Assembly: GCA_002292375.1 (NCBI GenBank)
Contig: DBBV01000020.1
Span: 8,197 to 72,196 of the forward strand
Source: Methylococcaceae bacterium UBA975
GTDB taxonomy: Bacteria > Pseudomonadota > Gammaproteobacteria > Methylococcales > Cycloclasticaceae
Length of the DNA stretch: 64,000 nt
Reading direction: 5' to 3'
The notes beneath the pieces are model-generated. The model was not told where the DNA came from and searched no databases. It saw only the letters and a list, made by a program, of their open reading frames with translations. Positions 25,199 through 36,421 of this stretch are shown here, one piece after another. The first letter of the stretch is position 1. Every line of letters starts with the position of its first letter. A program made the translations under genes and the position numbers.

Positions 25199-26086
25199 TT
25201 AAATTGGTCGTTCGATAGTTACTTGATTATATCGTTGTTTTTTTAAAATACAACCCAAAGCAAATCCAGTCATAAACATTAAAATACTATACGTTACCGC
25301 CGGTATCATCATGGCATTATTCCCAATGAGTGTACCCGTAACAAATAAAGCCAGCGTCCCATTTTGAATACCCACTTCATAAGAAATGGATACAGCTTGT
25401 GCTTGTGACAGTTTAAAAAACTTAGCCAACAAATAACCCAAGCCCAGCACTAAAACATTTAACGTTAGTGTCACGGCCCCTGCTTGCACAAAGAACCCGA
25501 CGATTTGAGGTTTATTTTTTAAAATAATCGCAACGATAATTAAAAACAAAAAAATCACTGAAAATACTCGAATAACCGGTTCAGTTTTATTCGCTGCCCC
25601 TTTCCACTTGAACAATATAAACATGCCCAACAACACCGGTATGACCGTAATAAGCAGTAATTGTAGAATGGTTTTTAGCAACGGCAGCTCAAACCCCTCT
25701 GCTGGCCCTATAAAATGATTCATCGCTAATAAGGTGAACAGCGGTAGAGTAAACGGCGTAATAAGGCTGACAACCGCTGTTAGGCTAATGGACAGTGCAA
25801 CATCACCCTTCGCCAAATTGGCAAACATATTTGACGTCGCCCCACCGGGCGCAAATGAAATAATCATCAGCCCAACGGCCAACTCAGGTGCTAATTTAAA
25901 AACCGTGGCCAGCAAGAAGGCAATGAGGGGTAAGGCAATAAGTTGCGCAGACAGCCCAATCACCGCCGCTTTGGGTTGGGTTATAACACGAGTAAAGTCA
26001 GTTCGTCTTAAAGACAGCCCCATACCCAACATAATAATAAATAATGAGACCGGTAAAACAACCGTAGTCAGCAAGTCAGCTTGCAT
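25199..26086 (-). CDS. Bile acid:sodium symporter family transporter
   Basis: APGGATSN, GDVALS, EVGIQNGTLA. Confidence 0.9.
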   Translation of the reverse strand: MQADLLTTVVLPVSLFIIMLGMGLSLRRTDFTRVITQPKAAVIGLSAQLIALPLIAFLLATVFKLAPELAVGLMIISFAPGGATSNMFANLAKGDVALSISLTAVVSLITPFTLPLFTLLAMNHFIGPAEGFELPLLKTILQLLLITVIPVLLGMFILFKWKGAANKTEPVIRVFSVIFLFLIIVAIILKNKPQIVGFFVQAGAVTLTLNVLVLGLGYLLAKFFKLSQAQAVSISYEVGIQNGTLALFVTGTLIGNNAMMIPAVTYSILMFMTGFALGCILKKQRYNQVTIERPI

Positions 26087-26165
26087 AATAAATCCTTTGA
26101 TTTCGATACTTATAATTGATATTGAGGTTTTTTGCTCAGGTGCTAACTACATTGGAATAATCGGC

Positions 26166-26684
26166 TTAACGAACTTTTAAACGGTTATTGGTATCCCTGT
26201 TTTCACTGATCAGCGCATTGCTGTCATGATACTCAGCCGATTTGGCCAGACGATCATACAGCACCACATTCACCGAGGCCGATAAGTTCATGCACCCCAC
26301 GGTGGGGACATAAACAACCGCATCCGCTTGATCGATAATAGCCTGATCAATCGAGCCATCTTCAGGACCAAAAATATACAACGCATTATCAGGGTGCTGA
26401 TACGTCGGCAAAGAAATGGCATCAATGGCAAATTCAATACACACGATTTTCATAGTGTCGGTGACGACATCTAGGAGACGTTCAGTGGCAGACAACAGCA
26501 CGTCTTTACTCACTTTACGGCTCATATCGACCACTCTGGCTTTACGCTCAATAGCCCGTGGGTAACGATCGCCGGTGTAAAAAACCTTCTCCACGCGATA
26601 ATTAGCCGCTGCACGTAAAACAGCCCCCACATTGTCTGGGCTTTTTGGGTTAATTAAGCCGATACTCACCTGTGATTGTTTCAT
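26166..26684 (-). CDS. SpoU/TrmH-family RNA methyltransferase
   Basis: NVGAVLRAA, YIFGPEDG, CMNLSASVNVVLYDR SPOUT motifs. Confidence 0.9.
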   Translation of the reverse strand: MKQSQVSIGLINPKSPDNVGAVLRAAANYRVEKVFYTGDRYPRAIERKARVVDMSRKVSKDVLLSATERLLDVVTDTMKIVCIEFAIDAISLPTYQHPDNALYIFGPEDGSIDQAIIDQADAVVYVPTVGCMNLSASVNVVLYDRLAKSAEYHDSNALISENRDTNNRLKVR

Positions 26685-26730
26685 TTTTTCCTTAATAGCG
26701 CCTGTTGTTTCTTAATATAGCTTTTTAGAC

Positions 26731-26799
26731 AAGCAAAAGGAATAAATGCCTTTGCGGCAGTAGGTAGTTTTAACCTATTAAGTCAATCAAACCTGACAC
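26731..26799 (+). repeat. Degenerate copy of 31210-31278 (right arm of the palindromic element plus type A TCTGACCC repeat)
   Basis: Ungapped manual alignment 51/69 identical. Confidence 0.75.
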
Positions 26800-26876
26800 G
26801 CCGTATTCTTTGTAATGTGCAGAAGAAAGTCATGGAAATGAGTCGCATTTGTCATCGACCCTTTAATTATTGGGAG

Positions 26877-26894
26877 TTTTACTCTGACCCCAAA
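26877..26894 (+). repeat. TCTGACCC repeat, type B (TTTTACTCTGACCCCAAA)
   Basis: Identical 18-mer to the copies at 31285 and 31912. Confidence 0.85.
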
Positions 26895-26921
26895 AAATAT
26901 CAAATATCATACCTAGCCTAC

Positions 26922-29339
26922 CTACTTTATTTTCGTTTCAATGGCGTCTCGCGGGAACTCATCTACCTGAATCACCTTACTGACAAGCCCCATCGCATCT
27001 TGCAATAACTGCCCTTCTTCTGCACTGATGATACCCTGAGACACGCCCTGGACTACAAGCGGCTCAAAATCATTCAGTCCCGGGGTCACGCCTAGCCCCT
27101 GTTTAAGCTTTTTCTCAACAGGTGCTGCATCAAGTACCTTTTCGAACGCTCGGTGCAAAAGACCGGTCGCATCATCGCCATCAGAGCGATAAATTCCACT
27201 CAACAGCCGTTCCCTTGCCGGATTGCGCGTAATCAACACCTGCGCCACATGTTTACCCAATGTATCAGAGGGAACTTTATAGGGGTGACCCAGTGGAAAT
27301 ATCAGCCATTTAACGACCTGCCCAAGCCAAGGAACAGGAAAATTGCGCAAGGTATTGATCAATGCGTCTTGAATCCGCACCAGACTGTCGCGCATGGCCC
27401 AATGCACCAGCGCATGGTCGTCCTTGGGGCAGCCATCATCTTCAAATTGCTTAAGCACTGCTGAGGCAATATACAAGTGACTCAACGCATCAGCCAGACG
27501 CCCTGAAATTTTTTCCTTAAACTTAAAGGAGCCCCCAAATAGCAGTAAAACAAGATCCGATACAAAGGCAAACGCTGCGCTCATTCTGGTTAATTGACGA
27601 TAATAGTGCGCTGTACGCCCATCGACCGGCGCCTTTACAAGCCGAGCACCGGTTAGTCCCATTACCCATGCGCGAACAAAATTGCTGGTGGTATAACCAA
27701 TATGGGAAAAAAAGGCTTCATCAAAGGCTCTGCTATTGGCATCTGAAGGTTCCGCCTGCGCAGCTTGCATTTCCTTCAATAGCCACGGGTGATTACGGAT
27801 GGCTCCCTGACCAAAAACAATCAGGCTACGGGTTAATATATTCGCCCCCTCCACTGTAATGGCTATGGGTAACGCCTGATAGAAGGAGGCCAGATAATTA
27901 TTCGGCCCTTGCATAATACCCTTGCCACCATGAATATCCATTGCATCATTAATGCATTGGCGGTTGCCCTCGGTCATTTGATACTTGAGTATGGCCGACA
28001 ACACGCTCGGCTTTTCTCCCATTTTTAACGCCGACATCGTAAGCAGCCGCGCGGCTTCCATTCGATACGTATTACCAGCAATACGGGCCAGCGGTTCTTC
28101 TATGCCTTCAAAGTATGCGATCGGCAGGCCGAATTGTTTGCGTATCCGAGCATACTCACCGCTCACCTGAGAAGCCAACTTGCTACCCGAAACACCCAGC
28201 GCCGGTAAAGAAATAGCCCGCCCAGCCGCCAGACTATGCATCAACATCAACCAGCCTTCACCGATGCCAGCCTTAGCCCCTATCACATAATCAAGAGGCA
28301 CAAACACCTGATCACCACGGGTTGGGCCATTCATAAACGCACTACCCAAAGGACGATGCCGGGTGCCCGTTGACACCCCTGGCGTGCTCACTGGAATCAA
28401 TGCACAGCTGATGCCGAGGTCTTCTTTTTCACTCAACAAATGATCTGGATCAAGGGTTCGGAAGGCCAGCCCAATGACTGTAGCAACAGGTGCCAGCGTG
28501 ATATACCGCTTGTTCCAATTTAGGCGCAGCCCAATAATTTCTTGCCCCTGCCACTGCCCTTTGCAAATCACTCCGGTATCCGGCATTGCCGATGCATCCG
28601 AGCCGGCGGTCGGCGAAGTGAGGGCAAAACAGGGGATCTCATCACCGCTTGCCAGACGCGGCAGGTAACTATCCCGTTGTTGTTGGGTTCCATAGTGCGC
28701 CAAAAGCTCGCCCGGGCCCAACGAATTTGGCACCATCACCGTTACTGCGGCAGTCAGGTTATGGCTGGCCAGCTTCATTACCACGGCAGCATTACCCAAT
28801 GCGCTAAATTCAAGTCCGCCGTATTCCTTACTGATAATCATACCGAAAAAGCGCAGTTCCTTAAGGAACTGCCACACCGGTGCCGGCAAATCACCTTGCG
28901 ATTCAATCTGCCAGGTATCGAGCATCTTGCACACCGTTTCGACAGGCCCATCCAAAAAGGCCTGCTCCTCTTTAGACAGTTCTGGTTTGGGCACATCGAG
29001 TAATTTTTTCCACTCAGGCTGGCCAGAAAAAAGCTCGGCATCCCACCAGACCGTACCGGCTTCCAAGGCTTCTTGCTCTGTCTGGGATAAGGCAGGCAAC
29101 AGTTTTCGAAACCAGCTGAGTATTGGTTCACTCACATAGTTTTGTCGCAAGGTCCGCAGACTCAGCAGGCCAAACAACACCACCAGAAACCAGCTAAGTA
29201 TCTGTACGGGTAAAGCCGCCAAGTCGGTAACACTGAACAACAAAGCAACCACCACCATTGACACCAATGCGGGTAGTAAACCTGCCCTAAAATACGCAAG
29301 CGCCACTAATACTGAGAATAAAAAAATTAGCTCTACCAT
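26922..29339 (-). CDS. fadE: Acyl-CoA dehydrogenase FadE
   Basis: 805 aa; ALEAGTVWWD, MVPNSLGPGELL, PIAITVEGANILTR. Confidence 0.93.
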   Translation of the reverse strand: MVELIFLFSVLVALAYFRAGLLPALVSMVVVALLFSVTDLAALPVQILSWFLVVLFGLLSLRTLRQNYVSEPILSWFRKLLPALSQTEQEALEAGTVWWDAELFSGQPEWKKLLDVPKPELSKEEQAFLDGPVETVCKMLDTWQIESQGDLPAPVWQFLKELRFFGMIISKEYGGLEFSALGNAAVVMKLASHNLTAAVTVMVPNSLGPGELLAHYGTQQQRDSYLPRLASGDEIPCFALTSPTAGSDASAMPDTGVICKGQWQGQEIIGLRLNWNKRYITLAPVATVIGLAFRTLDPDHLLSEKEDLGISCALIPVSTPGVSTGTRHRPLGSAFMNGPTRGDQVFVPLDYVIGAKAGIGEGWLMLMHSLAAGRAISLPALGVSGSKLASQVSGEYARIRKQFGLPIAYFEGIEEPLARIAGNTYRMEAARLLTMSALKMGEKPSVLSAILKYQMTEGNRQCINDAMDIHGGKGIMQGPNNYLASFYQALPIAITVEGANILTRSLIVFGQGAIRNHPWLLKEMQAAQAEPSDANSRAFDEAFFSHIGYTTSNFVRAWVMGLTGARLVKAPVDGRTAHYYRQLTRMSAAFAFVSDLVLLLFGGSFKFKEKISGRLADALSHLYIASAVLKQFEDDGCPKDDHALVHWAMRDSLVRIQDALINTLRNFPVPWLGQVVKWLIFPLGHPYKVPSDTLGKHVAQVLITRNPARERLLSGIYRSDGDDATGLLHRAFEKVLDAAPVEKKLKQGLGVTPGLNDFEPLVVQGVSQGIISAEEGQLLQDAMGLVSKVIQVDEFPRDAIETKIK

Positions 29340-29550
29340 ATCCTTATACCTCTATATTAATCAATCACATGGCGTTACCAACAACCCTGTGTCCATCCCG
29401 GTACGAATTGTATGAACAACGATTTTAAGGTCAACGTAAAAGCCACTTTAAGCCTTTATCACTGTCTGTCCACGTTTTTCTTTCCCCATTCAGCCGGCAG
29501 CTAAATCAGTGATGGAGCCCGTAAACTAATCGTTACCTATGATTAGGCTT

Positions 29551-29568
29551 TTTTACTCTGATCCCAAA
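29551..29568 (+). repeat. TCTGACCC repeat, type B variant
   Basis: TTTTACTCTGATCCCAAA, one mismatch to the type B consensus. Confidence 0.75.
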
Positions 29569-29587
29569 GGCTTTTGAGGCATTAAAT

Positions 29588-29613
29588 CAATTGATTCTGA
29601 CCCTATTGATTTT
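29588..29613 (+). repeat. TCTGACCC repeat, type A hairpin
   Basis: AAATCAAT-TGATTCTGACCCT-ATTGATTT; directly abuts the truncated attC. Confidence 0.85.
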
Positions 29614-29695
29614 AACAGGCAAAATTTGTTTGGCTAAAATAGAGCGGAGCGAGATAGCCAGCCGTATTTTGGCCTTGTTGATTAACGTGTTATCT
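29614..29695 (-). other. attC site truncated at its right end
   Basis: AGATAAC-ACGTTAATCAACAAGGCCAAAATACGGCTGGCT...TAGCCAAACAAATTTTGCCTGTT, then the type A repeat; the terminal spacer and R' core are missing. Confidence 0.75.
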
Positions 29696-30184
29696 CTTGG
29701 TTGCAACTTTATTGCAGGCGTAAATTCTACCATTTGATTGCGATTTAACTTCTAGGCTACTTTTAGTTAATTTGAGTATGTTTGATGACTCATTGATCCG
29801 CTTTGGAATAAATTGTTTTACATTTAAAAGTTGATCTAATTCTGGATGACTAACATTTACAGACTTAATTTCTGTAGATGATAAAAGAAAATGTCCCTCT
29901 TTTATTTTCCAAATAGAGTTGCCTGTAAGGCTATATTTTAATTCAGGAAAGTTTGGCAATTTAAATAACAGGGTACCAAATCCATTTGATTTTCCAGTGC
30001 GAAAAAAATTAACGTTATAGTTAATCTTTGCTTTCATTTTAGTATTTGAATTATTGACTTCATGTTTACAATGCCAGTTCCCATACAAATCACTTTCATT
30101 GATAGCTTTTTGTCCCGTCGCGAAAGCTGACATAGAACAGACCAACGTAAACAGAGGTAAAACATTAATTAGATTCATTCTCAT
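29690..30184 (-). CDS. Cassette-encoded hypothetical exported protein (beta-barrel/lipocalin-like)
   Basis: Signal peptide, LYGNWHC motif; stop codon lies within the attC inverse core. Confidence 0.7.
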   Translation of the reverse strand: MRMNLINVLPLFTLVCSMSAFATGQKAINESDLYGNWHCKHEVNNSNTKMKAKINYNVNFFRTGKSNGFGTLLFKLPNFPELKYSLTGNSIWKIKEGHFLLSSTEIKSVNVSHPELDQLLNVKQFIPKRINESSNILKLTKSSLEVKSQSNGRIYACNKVATKR

Positions 30185-30200
30185 CCTTATAGCGATTAAA

Positions 30201-30260
30201 AGCTGACGTTTTGAATATGCCGCCGCGCTTTTTGCGGTCGGATTTATTTTTTTGTTAGGT
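30201..30260 (-). other. attC site (60 bp) with a mutated core (GTC instead of GTT)
   Basis: ACCTAAC-AAAAAAATAAATCCGACCGCAAAAAGCGCGGCGGCATATTCAAAAC-GTCAGCT; near-identical to the attC at 34023. Confidence 0.85.
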
Positions 30261-30278
30261 TTTTGGTTTGACGGAAAT

Positions 30279-30303
30279 CAATCGAGTCTGACCCCATTGA
30301 TTT
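30279..30303 (+). repeat. TCTGACCC repeat, type A
   Basis: CAATCGAGTCTGACCCCATTGATTT, 24/25 identical to 31263-31287. Confidence 0.88.
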
Positions 30304-30345
30304 GCGATTAACCCGATACTTACATGTGATTGTTTCATTTTTTCT

Positions 30346-30618
30346 TTAAGCAATCGCTTGAATATCCTCAATATGCTTGGGTTGGCATTTACTTAGGTCG
30401 TAGCTGCTTTGCAGACTTACCCAATAGTCAGGCGTTGTATTGAAGTATTTAGCCAGCCTTAAAGCTGTATCAGGCGTGATTGAACGCCTCTCTTTTATAA
30501 TGTCACCTACCCTTGTCGCAGGCATAAAAGTGTCTTTTGCTAAGCGGTATGGGGTGATGCTCATTTCTTCAAGCAATTCTTGCAAAAAAACACCGGGGTG
30601 AAATGGGTTATTAATCAT
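30346..30618 (-). CDS. higA: HigA antitoxin (HTH XRE)
   Basis: HPGVFLQE, RSITPDTALRLAKYFNTTPDYWVSLQSSYDL. Confidence 0.95.
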   Translation of the reverse strand: MINNPFHPGVFLQELLEEMSITPYRLAKDTFMPATRVGDIIKERRSITPDTALRLAKYFNTTPDYWVSLQSSYDLSKCQPKHIEDIQAIA

Positions 30619-30627
30619 AATTTACTC

Positions 30628-30909
30628 CTAGTGGTAATCAGTTATTTCTACATTGAAAGCATGGCCATTTTCAAACTCAAAACATAGCCTCCATTGTTGA
30701 TTAATTCGTATGCTGTATTGACCCTTTCTATTACCACTAAGTTTTTCCAAGTGATTCGAGGGTGGCAGACGTAAATCTTCAATGACCGCTGCATTATCTA
30801 TCTGTACTAACCGCATCAATGCGCGAGTTTTTAAATTAACAGGCAGTTTTTTAGGAAACTTACCATTAGCGGCTTGCTCAGTTAACTTGTCAGCAAAACT
30901 TTTAATCAT
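30628..30909 (-). CDS. higB: HigB RelE-family toxin
   Basis: MIKSF, DLRLPPSNHLEKL, SIRINQQWRLCF, EITDYH. Confidence 0.95.
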   Translation of the reverse strand: MIKSFADKLTEQAANGKFPKKLPVNLKTRALMRLVQIDNAAVIEDLRLPPSNHLEKLSGNRKGQYSIRINQQWRLCFEFENGHAFNVEITDYH

Positions 30910-30917
30910 AAAAATAT

Positions 30918-30952
30918 AATAACGTCTTTCGTTAATAATGCAAGGCGTTATT
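30918..30952 (-). promoter_or_regulatory. higBA promoter/operator
   Basis: TTGCAT-N16-TATTAT overlapped by TAACG/CGTTA inverted repeats. Confidence 0.55.
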
Positions 30953-30975
30953 GTTTTGCATTGAGCTTAATCATT

Positions 30976-31253
30976 GTTAAAGGAAGGTTTACTGCTTCGG
31001 CAATGTGGGTAGAGCGTTGCACGCCTACAAAGATGTAGGCGGTAGAACGACTCAGGAGACAAAGTCGAGGAGCAATTGCAGAGCACGAACCCGAAAAACA
31101 ACTGATTGTTGCGATTGAGCGCCCTTTTCTTTGGTTCGTAGCTTTTAGTCTCACTTGGCGGTTGTTTTTTTTAACCGCTTAGTGAGACTTATACCTTTAG
31201 GTGATGGGAAAGCAAAAGAAATGAACGCCCTAGCGGCAGCAATAGCCTTTAAC
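30976..31253. repeat. 278-bp structured palindromic element (MITE/REPIN-like)
   Basis: Ends GTTAAAGG...CCTTTAAC; internal hairpins GCCTACA/TGTAGGC and AGTCTCACT...AGTGAGACT; TTTTCTTT/AAAAGAAA arms. Confidence 0.6.
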
Positions 31254-31262
31254 CTATTAAAC

Positions 31263-31306
31263 CAATCGAGTCTGACCCTATTGATTTTACTCTGACCCCA
31301 AATACT
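31263..31306 (+). repeat. Fused type A plus type B TCTGACCC repeats
   Basis: CAATCGAGTCTGACCCTATTGATTTTACTCTGACCCCAAATACT. Confidence 0.88.
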
Positions 31307-31312
31307 TATTAC

Positions 31313-31804
31313 CTATTTAAATCGTTGATAGTCGTCACAAGCTTCATTTTTATTTTTGCGTAAGCTCACATCGTTCGAACCTAATGCAATGGCCGTGGCT
31401 ACATTGCATTTTTTTCTAGCTAGTTGCACCTCACTTTCCACTGTACCTTCAGCAATACTGGCAATAGTTGGTTTAAACGATGCCGCCGCGTAACAGTACA
31501 TGTTTTTTGTTTTCTTATATCGCCAACCAAGTTCAGGTTTTTGTTGTAATTCAAAGCATAGGTCGGCAAACAACTGCTTTGCTGCAATCGTGCATTTAGA
31601 AAAATCTTGAATGTTATTTGTATAGGTATAACAAACACTTTGGTCTCTCACCCGCCATAACTGATGATGAAAAGGCACAACCAAACCTTTATGCTGAATT
31701 GAGACTGCCGTTACTTCTGTGCCAATCAAGTCGGTTATTTCTTCATGCACGCTTACAGAGACATAATTAATATATGCACCAAAAGCCATTGATAGTGGGT
31801 CCAC
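31313..31804 (-). CDS. Hypothetical Cys-containing protein flanked by 23-bp direct repeats
   Basis: 163 aa, GTG start after an AGGAG RBS; no family recognised. Confidence 0.65.
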   Translation of the reverse strand: MDPLSMAFGAYINYVSVSVHEEITDLIGTEVTAVSIQHKGLVVPFHHQLWRVRDQSVCYTYTNNIQDFSKCTIAAKQLFADLCFELQQKPELGWRYKKTKNMYCYAAASFKPTIASIAEGTVESEVQLARKKCNVATAIALGSNDVSLRKNKNEACDDYQRFK

Positions 31805-31910
31805 TGTATTCTCCTTGTGAAAGCCTTAGTCCTTTAAGCCCGATTAAAACCAAATAAAAGTAATTTGGCAACACCGTATTGTTAACCCGACGGAAGATAC
31901 CCGTTAATTA

Positions 31911-31933
31911 ATTTTACTCTGACCCCAAATACT
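31911..31933 (+). repeat. TCTGACCC repeat, type B
   Basis: ATTTTACTCTGACCCCAAATACT, identical to 31284-31306. Confidence 0.9.
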
Positions 31934-33539: not shown

Positions 33540-33594
33540 ACATAACGCCAAAAGAACCCGCGCCTATGGCGTCGGGTTGCTTGCCTTGTTAAGC
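33540..33594 (-). other. attC site (55 bp)
   Basis: GCTTAAC-AAGGC-AAGCAACC...GGTTCTT-TTGGC-GTTATGT, canonical R''/L''/L'/R' layout. Confidence 0.92.
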
Positions 33595-34013
33595 AAATTT
33601 TCACCACCACGATAATGCTTAGGTGACAATCGATTTATATCGTGGAACGCTTCTTTATATGAATCGACGGGCCAAGCCCATGCCTCCTGAATTTCATACT
33701 CTTTGTTATACAGCACCCAAACCAGAATATCCCAGTCGTAGTTCTTTGCTTTTGGCACCATTGTTACTTTGCTGCCAGCCTTTCCGGATGGCCGATTACC
33801 TTTAACTTGATAGCGGATATTGTTGAATATGAAATCATAGCCTTTTTGCACGGCTGTTTGTGATTGCATGAAATTTGAATATTCACTTTCACTCATACCA
33901 ACTAATAGCGCCGCATCAAGTTCAGAGAGCGCAGATGTTATTAATGGAGCGACACCAAATTTTTCTTGCCAGCTCAGGGCTACATTAACAAGATTATATC
34001 GAATTCTATTCAT
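33564..34013 (-). CDS. Cassette-encoded hypothetical protein, possible PD-(D/E)xK nuclease fold
   Basis: SELDAA...KGYDFIFNNIRYQVKG resembles an E...D-x8-QxK arrangement. Confidence 0.6.
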   Translation of the reverse strand: MNRIRYNLVNVALSWQEKFGVAPLITSALSELDAALLVGMSESEYSNFMQSQTAVQKGYDFIFNNIRYQVKGNRPSGKAGSKVTMVPKAKNYDWDILVWVLYNKEYEIQEAWAWPVDSYKEAFHDINRLSPKHYRGGENLLNKASNPTP

Positions 34014-34022
34014 GGTTTTATT

Positions 34023-34082
34023 GCTTAACGTTTTAAATAAGCCGCCGCGCTTTGCGCGGTCGGATTGATTTTTTTGTTAGGT
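34023..34082 (-). other. attC site (60 bp)
   Basis: ACCTAAC-AAAAAAATCAATCCGACCGCGCAAAGCGCGGCGGCTTATTTAAAAC-GTTAAGC. Confidence 0.92.
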
Positions 34083-34385
34083 TTTTTCATTGTCAGTTTT
34101 ATTTGCAAATTCGTTGAAGTGCTTTCCAAACGCTTCATCTTCGTAATGGTTTGGATTGTACGAAAGAACGGCTGAACTTAAATGTTTTGTTTTAACTAGG
34201 AGAAGTACGCATGTGGTGGAAAGAATTACTGTTGCAGCTGCCAATAACGCTATTGCTGTGGCTAGCTTATCTACGCTTAAAGGAGATAGGGCAGATACTA
34301 CCCAGTCATGGATTAGCCAGAAAGCAGCGCCCTCTATCAGAACGAGAGAGGCATATTTCACTATTGATAATAGGCTTTTTGACAT
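34077..34385 (-). CDS. Cassette-encoded small two-TM hypothetical protein
   Basis: 102 aa with two hydrophobic segments; stop within the attC core. Confidence 0.7.
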   Translation of the reverse strand: MSKSLLSIVKYASLVLIEGAAFWLIHDWVVSALSPLSVDKLATAIALLAAATVILSTTCVLLLVKTKHLSSAVLSYNPNHYEDEAFGKHFNEFANKTDNEKT

Positions 34386-34425
34386 TTATTGCGCTCCTTG
34401 CTCATCGCTTAGTAGTGACTTAGAA

Positions 34426-34513
34426 ACCTAACGCCCGCCTTCAGCCGGCCGCTTGGAGCGGATGACCGAAGGGAAGTAGCGGAAAGTGGGTCGGCTGCAA
34501 GGCATTGTTATAA
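34426..34513 (-). other. attC site (88 bp)
   Basis: TTATAAC-AATGCCTTGCAGCCGACC...GGCCGGCTGAAGGCGGGC-GTTAGGT. Confidence 0.92.
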
Positions 34514-35437
34514 GCCAGCTTTATTGGCTTCGTTTTCCATCGAATCCCAAAACTCACTATCCAATTTTTTAATTTGGATTGTTTGCTCCACTTGTAGCCC
34601 AACTCCATATTCATACAGGTAGGTAGCGAGCTGCTGGCCGTCAATGAGAATTAAGGTAGTAGCACCGTTTAAACTCTCGGCATAAGAAACCGCGCCCTGC
34701 GAAAATGTAGATGTAGTAATGAATACGCCTTTATTGGATTGAGCCACCGCCAATGCACCAACAAATTTTTGTATTTCTTCTCTACCAACACTATTTGCCT
34801 GAGCGTAGCGTTTTGCCTGAATATGAATACGGCCAAGACCTAGGACATCTTCTTTGATGATGCCGTCTATGCCACCATCGTTAGTGTACGAGGTGACGAC
34901 CCCTGAGCCTTTTATTTCACCGCCATATCCCATCTTTTGCAGCAGAAGTACCACGAGTTTTTCAAACTCTCGTGGTGTTTTACTAAGAACGGTATCAATA
35001 ATTTCCTGATACCTCGATCCCCGAATTTTCTCCGCAGAAGCATACAACTCTTCTTGCGGTGTGAGGCTATCTTGGTTTGTTGCCAACTGTGACGGCTTAG
35101 AGGGTTTCGATTTTTGCTTCTTGGCAAATTCGGCCACCACAAAATCATTTATACCATCGGGCGACGCAAGCTTTTCAGTGCCAAGAGAGCTAATTTCATA
35201 AACGCCACGCTTAGGCTTTTTCAGTAAGCCCGCCATATTCATGTAACTAAGCGCCCAGCTTATGCGGTCATAGAATATCTTTCCGTTCCCGGATTCATAT
35301 TCTTCGTGGAGTTCGTCTTCGGATAAGGCGAAATGCTTTGCTAGTGGCGCTTCGAATTCGCTGAGTTTCAGTTGCCCGCGCTCAGAGAGCAAAGACAGCG
35401 CTGGGACGCGAATTTCATCGTGTTTTGGGATTGTCAC
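34508..35437 (-). CDS. mrr: Cassette-encoded Mrr-family type IV restriction endonuclease
   Basis: N-terminal winged helix (FYDRISWALSYM) and catalytic DGGIDG...HIQAKRY. Confidence 0.92.
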   Translation of the reverse strand: MTIPKHDEIRVPALSLLSERGQLKLSEFEAPLAKHFALSEDELHEEYESGNGKIFYDRISWALSYMNMAGLLKKPKRGVYEISSLGTEKLASPDGINDFVVAEFAKKQKSKPSKPSQLATNQDSLTPQEELYASAEKIRGSRYQEIIDTVLSKTPREFEKLVVLLLQKMGYGGEIKGSGVVTSYTNDGGIDGIIKEDVLGLGRIHIQAKRYAQANSVGREEIQKFVGALAVAQSNKGVFITTSTFSQGAVSYAESLNGATTLILIDGQQLATYLYEYGVGLQVEQTIQIKKLDSEFWDSMENEANKAGL

Positions 35438-35859: not shown

Positions 35860-35884
35860 TACCTTTGGCAGTTTTCGTTTTGAT

Positions 35885-35960
35885 ACCTAACTTGTTATTA
35901 AGGGGAACAAAAAGTCCCTGTAATTCCTTTACATAGCTGGACAATAATACCCTGTAATCT
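35885..35960 (-). other. Candidate attI site
   Basis: CCCCTTAATAACAA-GTTAGGT resembles attI1 CCCTAAAACAAA-GTT; no complementary attC left arm; two ATTACAGGG direct repeats upstream (35916-35924, 35950-35958). Confidence 0.65.
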
Positions 35961-35969
35961 GATAATCAA
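35941..35969 (-). promoter_or_regulatory. Candidate Pc cassette promoter
   Basis: TTGATT-N17-TATTGT pointing into the array. Confidence 0.4.
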
Positions 35970-36027
35970 GCTCAAAGCATGCCTGTTAACATGAAACAAG
36001 AGGTCAGCCAGCTTGATTTAATTTTGC

Positions 36028-36165
36028 TGTGGGTTACACCATAAGCTGCGACTAGCAACCCTTACATTTACTGGGCTCATGGACTTCATTAACCGTTTGT
36101 TTGCGACTAAATAGAAGCATAAGGTGCGACTTTACCCGTGAAAAGCGGCATAAGGTGCGACTTTA
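36028..36165 (+). mobile_element. Tn7-like transposon end (tns-distal, left-type) with TnsB-type binding sites
   Basis: TGTGGGTTACACC-ATAAGCTGCGACT has the same TGT-to-ATAA spacing as the Tn6677 end (TGTTGATGCAACC-ATAAAGTG, recalled). Further copies at about 36102 (weak), 36117-36134 and 36148-36165 (identical GCATAAGGTGCGACTTTA). Confidence 0.72.
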
Positions 36166-36421
36166 TTATTCTCATGCTGCTTTTAGCTATTTTTAAGTTT
36201 CAAACGATATGGGGGGAGCAATGACAACTGACTGCAAATGCTAGAGAACTTGAACCTTGAACCTCCAACCACCAGTACCACAAACTGGTATCTCTCACGC
36301 CTAACTAATTGATTTTTATAATATATAAAAAAACCATCTAACCTTTTACTGTAGATCACCCTATATGAATCAATAATTTGAACCGTTTGGTTAGACGTTA
36401 TTGGTAATTATCATAAACTCC

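Follow-up and report, generated by a model that had tools for sequence, protein, structure and literature searches.

Co-oriented repeats at block junctions of a Cycloclasticus genome island are probably solo terminal inverted repeats of two TIRYT lineages

Results

The 64,000-nucleotide stretch analyzed here (the window) belongs to Methylococcaceae bacterium UBA975 and corresponds to C23:8197-72196 of a 2.33-Mb, 24-contig, 93%-complete Cycloclasticus assembly (G000; relatives are denoted by further G numbers and contigs by C numbers). Its island between spoU and hemH harbors two types of short repeat, A and B, that share the core TCTGACCC. Judging from sequence comparison, these repeats are most probably (rough probability 0.85) orphan, solo terminal inverted repeats (TIRs) of two TIRYT, or "TIRtron", lineages, a class that is known but little studied. 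A TIRtron is a unit of ~780 bp encoding a Y1/HUH single-stranded DNA (ssDNA) transposase of TnpA_Y1 subclass 2.1, which corresponds to group 1 of the REP (repetitive extragenic palindromic)-associated tyrosine transposases (RAYTs). A preliminary description of the sequence had instead presented the repeats as an unnamed family defining a second, non-attC gene-shuffling system whose enzyme acts in trans.

Two repeat types cluster in a single orientation

The TCTGACCC core occurs seven times in the window, with six instances on the + strand between 26883 and 31925, against a chance expectation of 0.72; none of 100 shuffled sequences reached seven. Type B is the 18-nt sequence TTTTACTCTGACCCCAAA (expectation 0.06), present exactly at 26877, 31285 and 31912 and with one mismatch at 29551. 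Type A is a 29-nt hairpin, AAATCAAT-N13-ATTGATTT, with perfect arms at 29584 and 30275 and with a left arm carrying one mismatch (AAACCAAT) at 31259. All A and B copies in the 26.7-32 kb region lie in one orientation, on the + strand, and they form a strong local cluster of eight copies inside 5.2 kb. The co-oriented repeats with a common core that had been reported at these sites are hence real and far above chance. The unit 26731-26797 has a second occurrence at 31210-31276, with 75% identity. The repeats of the window, and the element remnant that precedes the first of them, are as follows.

26731-26765: remnant of the tail of the M element (see below), preceding the degenerate A at 26779
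26779..26800, + strand: degenerate type A, with the left arm and part of the loop kept and the right arm lost
26877..26894, + strand: solo type B, exact, 27 nt from the fadE stop codon
29551..29568, + strand: solo type B, one mismatch, upstream of fadE
29584..29612, + strand: type A hairpin with perfect 8-bp arms and a variant loop, 2 nt past the R' G/TT of the terminal attC (29613-29690)
30275..30303, + strand: canonical type A hairpin, with an attC 10 nt away on one side and the spoU stub 3 nt away on the other
31259..31287, + strand: type A hairpin, one mismatch in the left arm
31285..31302, + strand: type B, exact, overlapping the A at 31259 by 3 nt and lying 10 nt from the ORF163 stop codon
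31912..31929, + strand: type B, exact, inside a short cassette, directly after a 38-codon open reading frame (ORF)
35993..36019, - strand: A'-type hairpin AAATCAAG-CTGGCTGACC-TCTTGTTT, between an attI copy lacking intI (35872-35990) and a Tn7-like end (TGTGGG, 36028)

As ssDNA, the canonical A forms an 8-bp hairpin with a weak fold (-3.8 kcal/mol on the + strand, z -1.6; -5.7 kcal/mol for the complement). A solo B does not fold, and a B dimer folds strongly (-14.7 kcal/mol, z -6.2). Rfam holds no family for the A/B repeats or for the M element, and a literature search with the repeat motif strings returned nothing relevant.

Inverted repeat pairs enclose Y1 transposase genes in relatives

In relatives, the same repeats occur as inverted pairs. 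The spacing is 776-779 bp for the A(-)/A(+) pairs of G001, G007, G019 and G029, and 786 bp for the B(-)/B(+) pair of G006. With GGGGTCAG, the reverse-complemented core, outermost, these pairs enclose ORFs of 229-248 aa (MARLPRF..QHIIxRGNNR..) that match PF01797 (Y1_Tnp) with E-values of 1e-12 to 1e-17, and protein P0001 scores above the cut-off of NCBIfam NF047646, "REP-associated tyrosine transposase". Homologs were searched for in 61 relatives, using the G029 protein as query. All nine Y1 homologs with at least 57% identity to P0001, drawn from four genera, have A(-) on the upstream side, and on the downstream side they carry A(+) or at least the TCTGACCC core. The G006 homolog (50% identical) sits between B(-) and B(+), the G024 homolog (49% identical) has two B(+) copies on a single side, and more distant homologs have other flanks, some of which retain the core. 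The connection to an HUH enzyme of the IS200/RAYT type, surmised in the preliminary description, is therefore upheld by the inverted A or B pairs flanking PF01797 genes in relatives.

The motifs of these proteins point to a specific class. P0001 (238 aa) carries NHVH, WE and YIEMNP, and P0002 (229 aa) carries NHVH, WE and YIELNP; the signature of TnpA_Y1 subclass 2.1 is NHVH, W[EQ] and YIELNP, with a median length of 238 aa (Quentin et al. 2018, PMC6006769, Table 1). According to the same authors, subclass 2.1 is equivalent to RAYT group 1 of Bertels and to the TIRYTs of Di Nocera et al. 2013, and on these motifs the enclosed genes fit that class. TIRYT genes lie between terminal inverted repeats, many with the sequence GGGGWSAS, and such repeats are also dispersed genome-wide as single, dimeric and grouped copies (Di Nocera et al. 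2013, PMC3733652). When reverse-complemented, both A (AATGGGGTCAGACTCG) and B (TTTGGGGTCAGAGTAAAA) give GGGG-T-C-A-G, and GGGGTCAG agrees with the GGGGWSAS consensus (PMC3733652). Furthermore, 16-mers flanking group 1 RAYTs occur ~12 times per genome (Bertels et al. 2017, PMC5581495), which is matched by the ~11-12 copies per family found here. The repeats thus fit the ends of an element class that is already named and described (PMC3733652, PMC6006769), a result that goes against the earlier reading of an unnamed family and corresponds to one of the outcomes named there as refuting it. A sequence search of the PDB with P0001 gave no match.

The cognate TIRYT gene itself is absent from the window, as had been anticipated, and also from the whole of this assembly and from the 99%-complete G004, which carries 13 B copies. 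The proposed linkage of the two motifs to a Y1/HUH gene consequently holds in relatives and fails in the genome itself. The only Y1 gene of the genome (C16:393525-394055; PF01797, 24.9 bits) was considered as the cognate enzyme and rejected, since it is an E. coli-type RAYT amid GTAGGTTGGGGTGAGG... REPs. Its locus (G000:C16:393300-394250) encodes a canonical RAYT of 176 aa resembling E. coli TnpA_REP, with GTAG-type REPs (GTAGGTTGGGGTGAGGCACGAACCCCAAC) on both sides, and the REPs around it carry GTAGG.

Distribution of the repeats across genomes

Genome-wide, ~11 A and ~12 B copies were identified on seven contigs. The bare 8-mer core is not over-represented at this scale (51 observed versus 55 expected) and, hence, the signal resides in the longer A/B units. 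Congeneric species and further families of the order also carry both types; a control with reversed patterns detected none. More than 120 stretches, from Gamma-, Beta-, Zeta- and Alphaproteobacteria, Candidatus Electrothrix, Candidatus Entotheonella and a Salibacteraceae metagenome-assembled genome, contain the central 23-mer of type A in exact form. Among these stretches there are 14 (-,+) pairs spaced 650-950 bp apart, every one of which encloses an ORF with HuH (NHxH) and Y (YxxxNP) motifs, and 23 short head-to-head dimers. Across 120 cross-phylum loci, (+,-) brackets, counted by eye, were not clearly commoner than other orientations. The orientation of the copies follows GC skew in 16 of 20 cases, the copies being clustered and non-independent; this trend is as expected for a lagging-strand ssDNA mechanism.

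A non-coding repeat of ~250-300 nt, designated N, was also observed in four places (G000:C13:20600-20880, C16:4470-4740, C16:77400-77700 and C16:212750-213000). Each copy ends in or starts from a type A hairpin, and the four copies together suggest that A(-)-N-A(+) is a non-autonomous unit.

Repeats at block junctions of the spoU-hemH island

Comparison with the congeners G004 and G012 shows that blocks of different origin meet at the repeats, largely in agreement with the placement at breakpoints proposed in the preliminary description. The main features of the island other than the repeats are listed below.

26922..29339, - strand: fadE, encoding an acyl-CoA dehydrogenase of 805 aa with an ACDH_C domain
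29690-30184 within 29690..30264, - strand: ORF164 cassette
30206-30264, + strand: attC of the cassette preceding ORF164 in array order, 92% identical to the attC at 34028-34086
30307..30349, - strand: spoU stub of 43 nt, a second copy of the spoU 5' end, 3 nt from the A at 30275
30346..30909, - strand: higA-higB toxin-antitoxin pair
30990..31240, + strand: M element, a multi-hairpin multicopy repeat that is outside the TCTGACCC family yet recurs beside it

In both G004 and G012 the start of spoU lies directly next to higA-higB, which is followed by the M element. In the window, 3,611 bp (26696-30306) intervene between spoU and higBA. In order of position, fadE is here preceded by a decayed A and a B and followed by a further B and A, after which come a single cassette with its two attC sites and one more A. 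The short stub that had been remarked upon before the attC at 30260 turned out to be the 43-nt copy of the spoU 5' end (30307-30349), which is 91% identical to the first copy (26653-26695) and runs into higA exactly as it does in the two congeners; the stub, the first copy and the G004 sequence are pairwise identical at 39 of 43 positions. The block that begins with the stub and spans higBA and the M element (30307-31240) shares 94% identity with its counterpart beside spoU in G004, while spoU itself is only 86.5% identical, which hints at the arrival of the higBA-M block by exchange with a G004-like donor. The fadE gene has a GC content of 50.9%, versus 42.3% for the window, and no ortholog in 21 congeners, its best matches (~52% identical) being in other families. 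It is GC-rich and, within the genus, restricted to this species, which makes horizontal acquisition probable. The A-B pair at 31259-31302 divides the M element from ORF163, and the B at 31912 directly follows the 38-codon ORF of a cassette. The A at 29584, on the other hand, does not truncate the last attC as claimed: the R' GTT of this site is intact, and the hairpin abuts it, starting 2 nt past the G/TT crossover.

Several further observations were made on the island. The M element, whose core is 31082-31240, has 28 matches in G004, 14 in G012, 9 in G003 and 10 in G014; it exists in long (~160 nt) and short (~100 nt) forms, all terminating in ...GCGGCAGCGAA, and in many cases an A- or A'-type hairpin is found 20-80 nt away. 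The cassettes in 33564-35437 include a complete Mrr-type restriction endonuclease (Mrr_N and Mrr_cat), and the cassette ORFs of 164, 163, 149 and 102 aa match no family. The Tn7-like end (36028-36170, TGTGGG...) contains two 25-nt direct repeats (36110-36134 and 36141-36165); homology to G021 (90%) begins exactly at 36028 and continues through hemH.

The attI-like segment of the window (35872-35990) is 93% identical to the attI that lies beside a real intI (C21:15590-16534; 443 bits). The genome contains three attI-like copies, at this position, at C21:16598-16715 and at C16:4793-4864, and only the C21 copy has an intI. Both copies without intI present an A-type hairpin where intI would start, the one on C16 being an A-variant at the same relative position, and an attI-like segment near hemH in G016 likewise has an A-type hairpin there. 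BLAST searches with the attC sites of the window found no other arrays in the genome, attC sites being too heterogeneous.

Module edges at other loci

Repeats were also observed at the edges of gene modules elsewhere. On contig C17 of this genome, a glutathione peroxidase gene (gpx) has a degenerate B dimer on each side (164991-165056 and 165786-165856); the dimers are 66-70 bp long and resemble miniature inverted-repeat transposable elements (MITEs). In relatives, the gene and its left and right flanks occupy three separate places, with homology ending no more than 7 nt from the dimers, and G012 has a C17-type left flank and dimer followed by a pirin gene and another B. Neither of the two C17 dimers shows a target-site duplication, their flanks reading TAT/.../TACC. 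B(+) and B(-) bracket a transporter gene in G004 that has 89% identity to window positions 25213-26132. At G000:C12:31616-34185, a tRNA-Pro(GGG) is followed by a B copy, an N-terminally truncated Rhs fragment (with its C-terminal tip and a small downstream ORF) and three B copies in the opposite orientation that close a 2.3-kb block. At these loci the GGGG ends point toward the module, which indicates that the modules lie between elements and not within a TIRtron-like unit.

A single gene order in the species

Variability of the locus among strains was assessed on public contigs encoding proteins of this species, obtained from many JGI, ENA, NCBI and Logan samples. In long contigs the gene order hemH-ABM-Mrr-ORF102-ORF149-HPP-HD-ORF163-higBA-ORF164-fadE-spoU is unchanged. 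The same order was found in all 46 contigs read that carry HigB or ORF163, as well as in the long ones among 20 SpoU carriers, and the ten SpoU places that were aligned are collinear and 99.5-100% identical. No presence or absence of modules at the strain level, of the kind that repeat-bounded modules had been expected to show, was seen in the contigs read. The spoU-to-hemH island is thus a mosaic whose acquired blocks have become fixed, and not a place of active shuffling.

Discussion

The features described above place A and B closest to the TIRtron/TIRYT class, with which they share a Y1/HUH gene of ~238 aa (NHVH, YIELNP) between inverted GGGGWSAS repeats, a wide and patchy taxonomic distribution, and repeats scattered singly, in dimers or in groups, with roughly twelve copies in a genome. 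They differ in that this genome keeps the repeats without the enzyme gene, in that type A, unlike most published TIRs, is a hairpin in its own right, and in a placement at cassette and attI boundaries and module seams that was previously undescribed. The REP/REPIN-RAYT systems of groups 2 and 3 (E. coli TnpA_REP, Pseudomonas fluorescens), one of which is present in this genome (C16:393525-394055), likewise have short palindromic repeats inverted around a single-copy Y1 gene, head-to-head dimers and an inferred spread in trans. In contrast to those repeats, A and B lack a 5' GT[AG]G foot (no GTAG or GTGG at either end) and number ~11 and ~12 in 2.33 Mb, versus tens to hundreds of REPs, and their enzyme, a member of another subclass, is extended at its C terminus. 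IS200/IS605 elements (IS608, ISDra2; peel-and-paste) share the HUH/Y1 core acting on ssDNA hairpins, and a strand or orientation bias like theirs would explain co-oriented copies. Their ends, however, are co-oriented subterminal hairpins around a TnpA of ~150 aa, in many identical copies, whereas A/B ends are inverted, the copies are mostly solo, and the enzyme is 229-248 aa long and scores 29 bits versus a cut-off of 55 bits for NF033573. Integron attC sites are also short hairpin-forming ssDNA sites at module boundaries, and A and B lie 2-14 nt from attC boxes in this array. Unlike attC sites, the repeats lack R''/R' (RYYYAAC/GTTRRRY) and L''/L' boxes, are predicted not to be IntI substrates, and occur genome-wide, outside arrays as well.

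If A and B are solo TIRs, a TIRYT carried by an ancestor, or one that was there only for a time, would have spread the copies in trans, likely through a REPIN-like mechanism in which the enzyme works on single-stranded hairpin DNA. The copies would have accumulated in the flexible genome, among integron cassettes, toxin-antitoxin loci, Rhs fragments and acquired genes, and would now mark the seams of the mosaic island from spoU to the Tn7-like end. This placement may reflect either insertion at hairpin-rich boundaries or rearrangement at the repeats, in an arrangement that appears to have since become frozen in this species. Several points weigh against this account. Spread in trans by a TIRYT is argued by analogy with E. 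coli TnpA_REP and IS608. The assembly being 93% complete, a cognate gene could sit in the missing part. Within species, and also between species with ~70-94% DNA identity in the regions compared, most B 18-mers and several A 27-mers do not differ at all; for B, this would be surprising in relics that died long ago and points to recent activity, to gene conversion or to selection. Finally, a search for empty sites, comparing the flanks of eight other loci with ten congeners, found no contiguous flank pair, the genomes being too rearranged.

A different reading, that of the preliminary description, is that the repeats are working sites of a second, non-attC gene-shuffling system in which a Y1/HUH enzyme provided in trans moves the bracketed modules. 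Its appeal lies in the seven block junctions of the 26.7-32 kb region, each with an A or B copy, in the 3.6 kb, including the genus-unique fadE, that here separate spoU from the higBA adjacent to it in G004 and G012, and in the modules found elsewhere, namely the C17 gpx gene with its abrupt flank homology, the pirin gene and B at the corresponding place in G012, and the B(+)/B(-)-flanked transporter gene of G004. The co-orientation of all eight copies would also fit a strand-specific ssDNA mechanism, as does the GC skew trend, with the same dependence among clustered copies. However, neither this genome nor G004 encodes a cognate enzyme, and the locus is invariant in the 46 contigs. The modules, moreover, lie between outward-facing ends, in (+)...(-) arrangement or between direct repeats, as opposed to the (-)gene(+) geometry of TIRtrons; the same pattern is predicted by repeats piling up in flexible regions and serving as portable homology; and mobilization of passenger genes by RAYTs or TIRYTs has never been reported. 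We therefore consider a shuffling system of this kind, at work today, to be unlikely.

A mediating role of the repeats in the exchange of gene modules is in general held to be improbable, and the same low credence applies to its more specific form, in which TIRYT repeats would be sites where a transient, horizontally acquired Y1/HUH enzyme cuts and joins ssDNA, exchanging modules that include attI-cassette arrays without intI. The latter is prompted by the attI-like copies in the window, G000:C16 and G016, all three of which lack intI and have an A-type hairpin where that gene would start.

It is very improbable that the repeats are host regulatory or structural sites, such as operators, terminators or hairpins for nucleoid proteins. 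The copies are intergenic, one variant (C13:20860) is followed by a T-run, and the copies flanking fadE could be pictured as a FadR-like box, GTCTGACC being loosely similar to FadR half-sites, a notion dropped once the Y1 linkage had been seen. Yet the same sequences flank Y1 transposase genes across phyla, the repeats truncate genes (the Rhs fragment on C12, the spoU stub), and the A hairpin folds weakly, in most cases with no T-run. Least credible of all is an origin as the ends of a DDE-type insertion sequence, a MITE or a Tn3-family element, for which the MITE-like size and strong fold of the B dimers and a GGGG terminus with internal ACGCTAAG, reminiscent of Tn3 inverted repeats (a resemblance set aside upon finding the Y1 linkage), can be adduced, but which is contradicted by the lack of target-site duplications at the C17 dimers and by Y1/HUH genes being the sole gene type between full-length pairs (14/14), with no DDE gene associated.

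Identification of A and B as probable TIRYT repeats would explain eight otherwise puzzling repeats in the annotation of this genome. Group 1 RAYTs (TIRYTs) are the largest and most widespread RAYT group, and the present analysis offers enzyme-substrate pairs for their study, type A with the G029 (C18:86064-86777) and G019 enzymes and type B with the G006 enzyme (C323:1072-1746), together with a 23-mer conserved across phyla and concrete junctions at which the gene blocks of congeners differ. Should the unlikelier possibility of module exchange prove true, with repeats landing preferentially beside attC and attI hairpins, TIRYTs would constitute a second, trans-acting layer of module exchange atop integrons.

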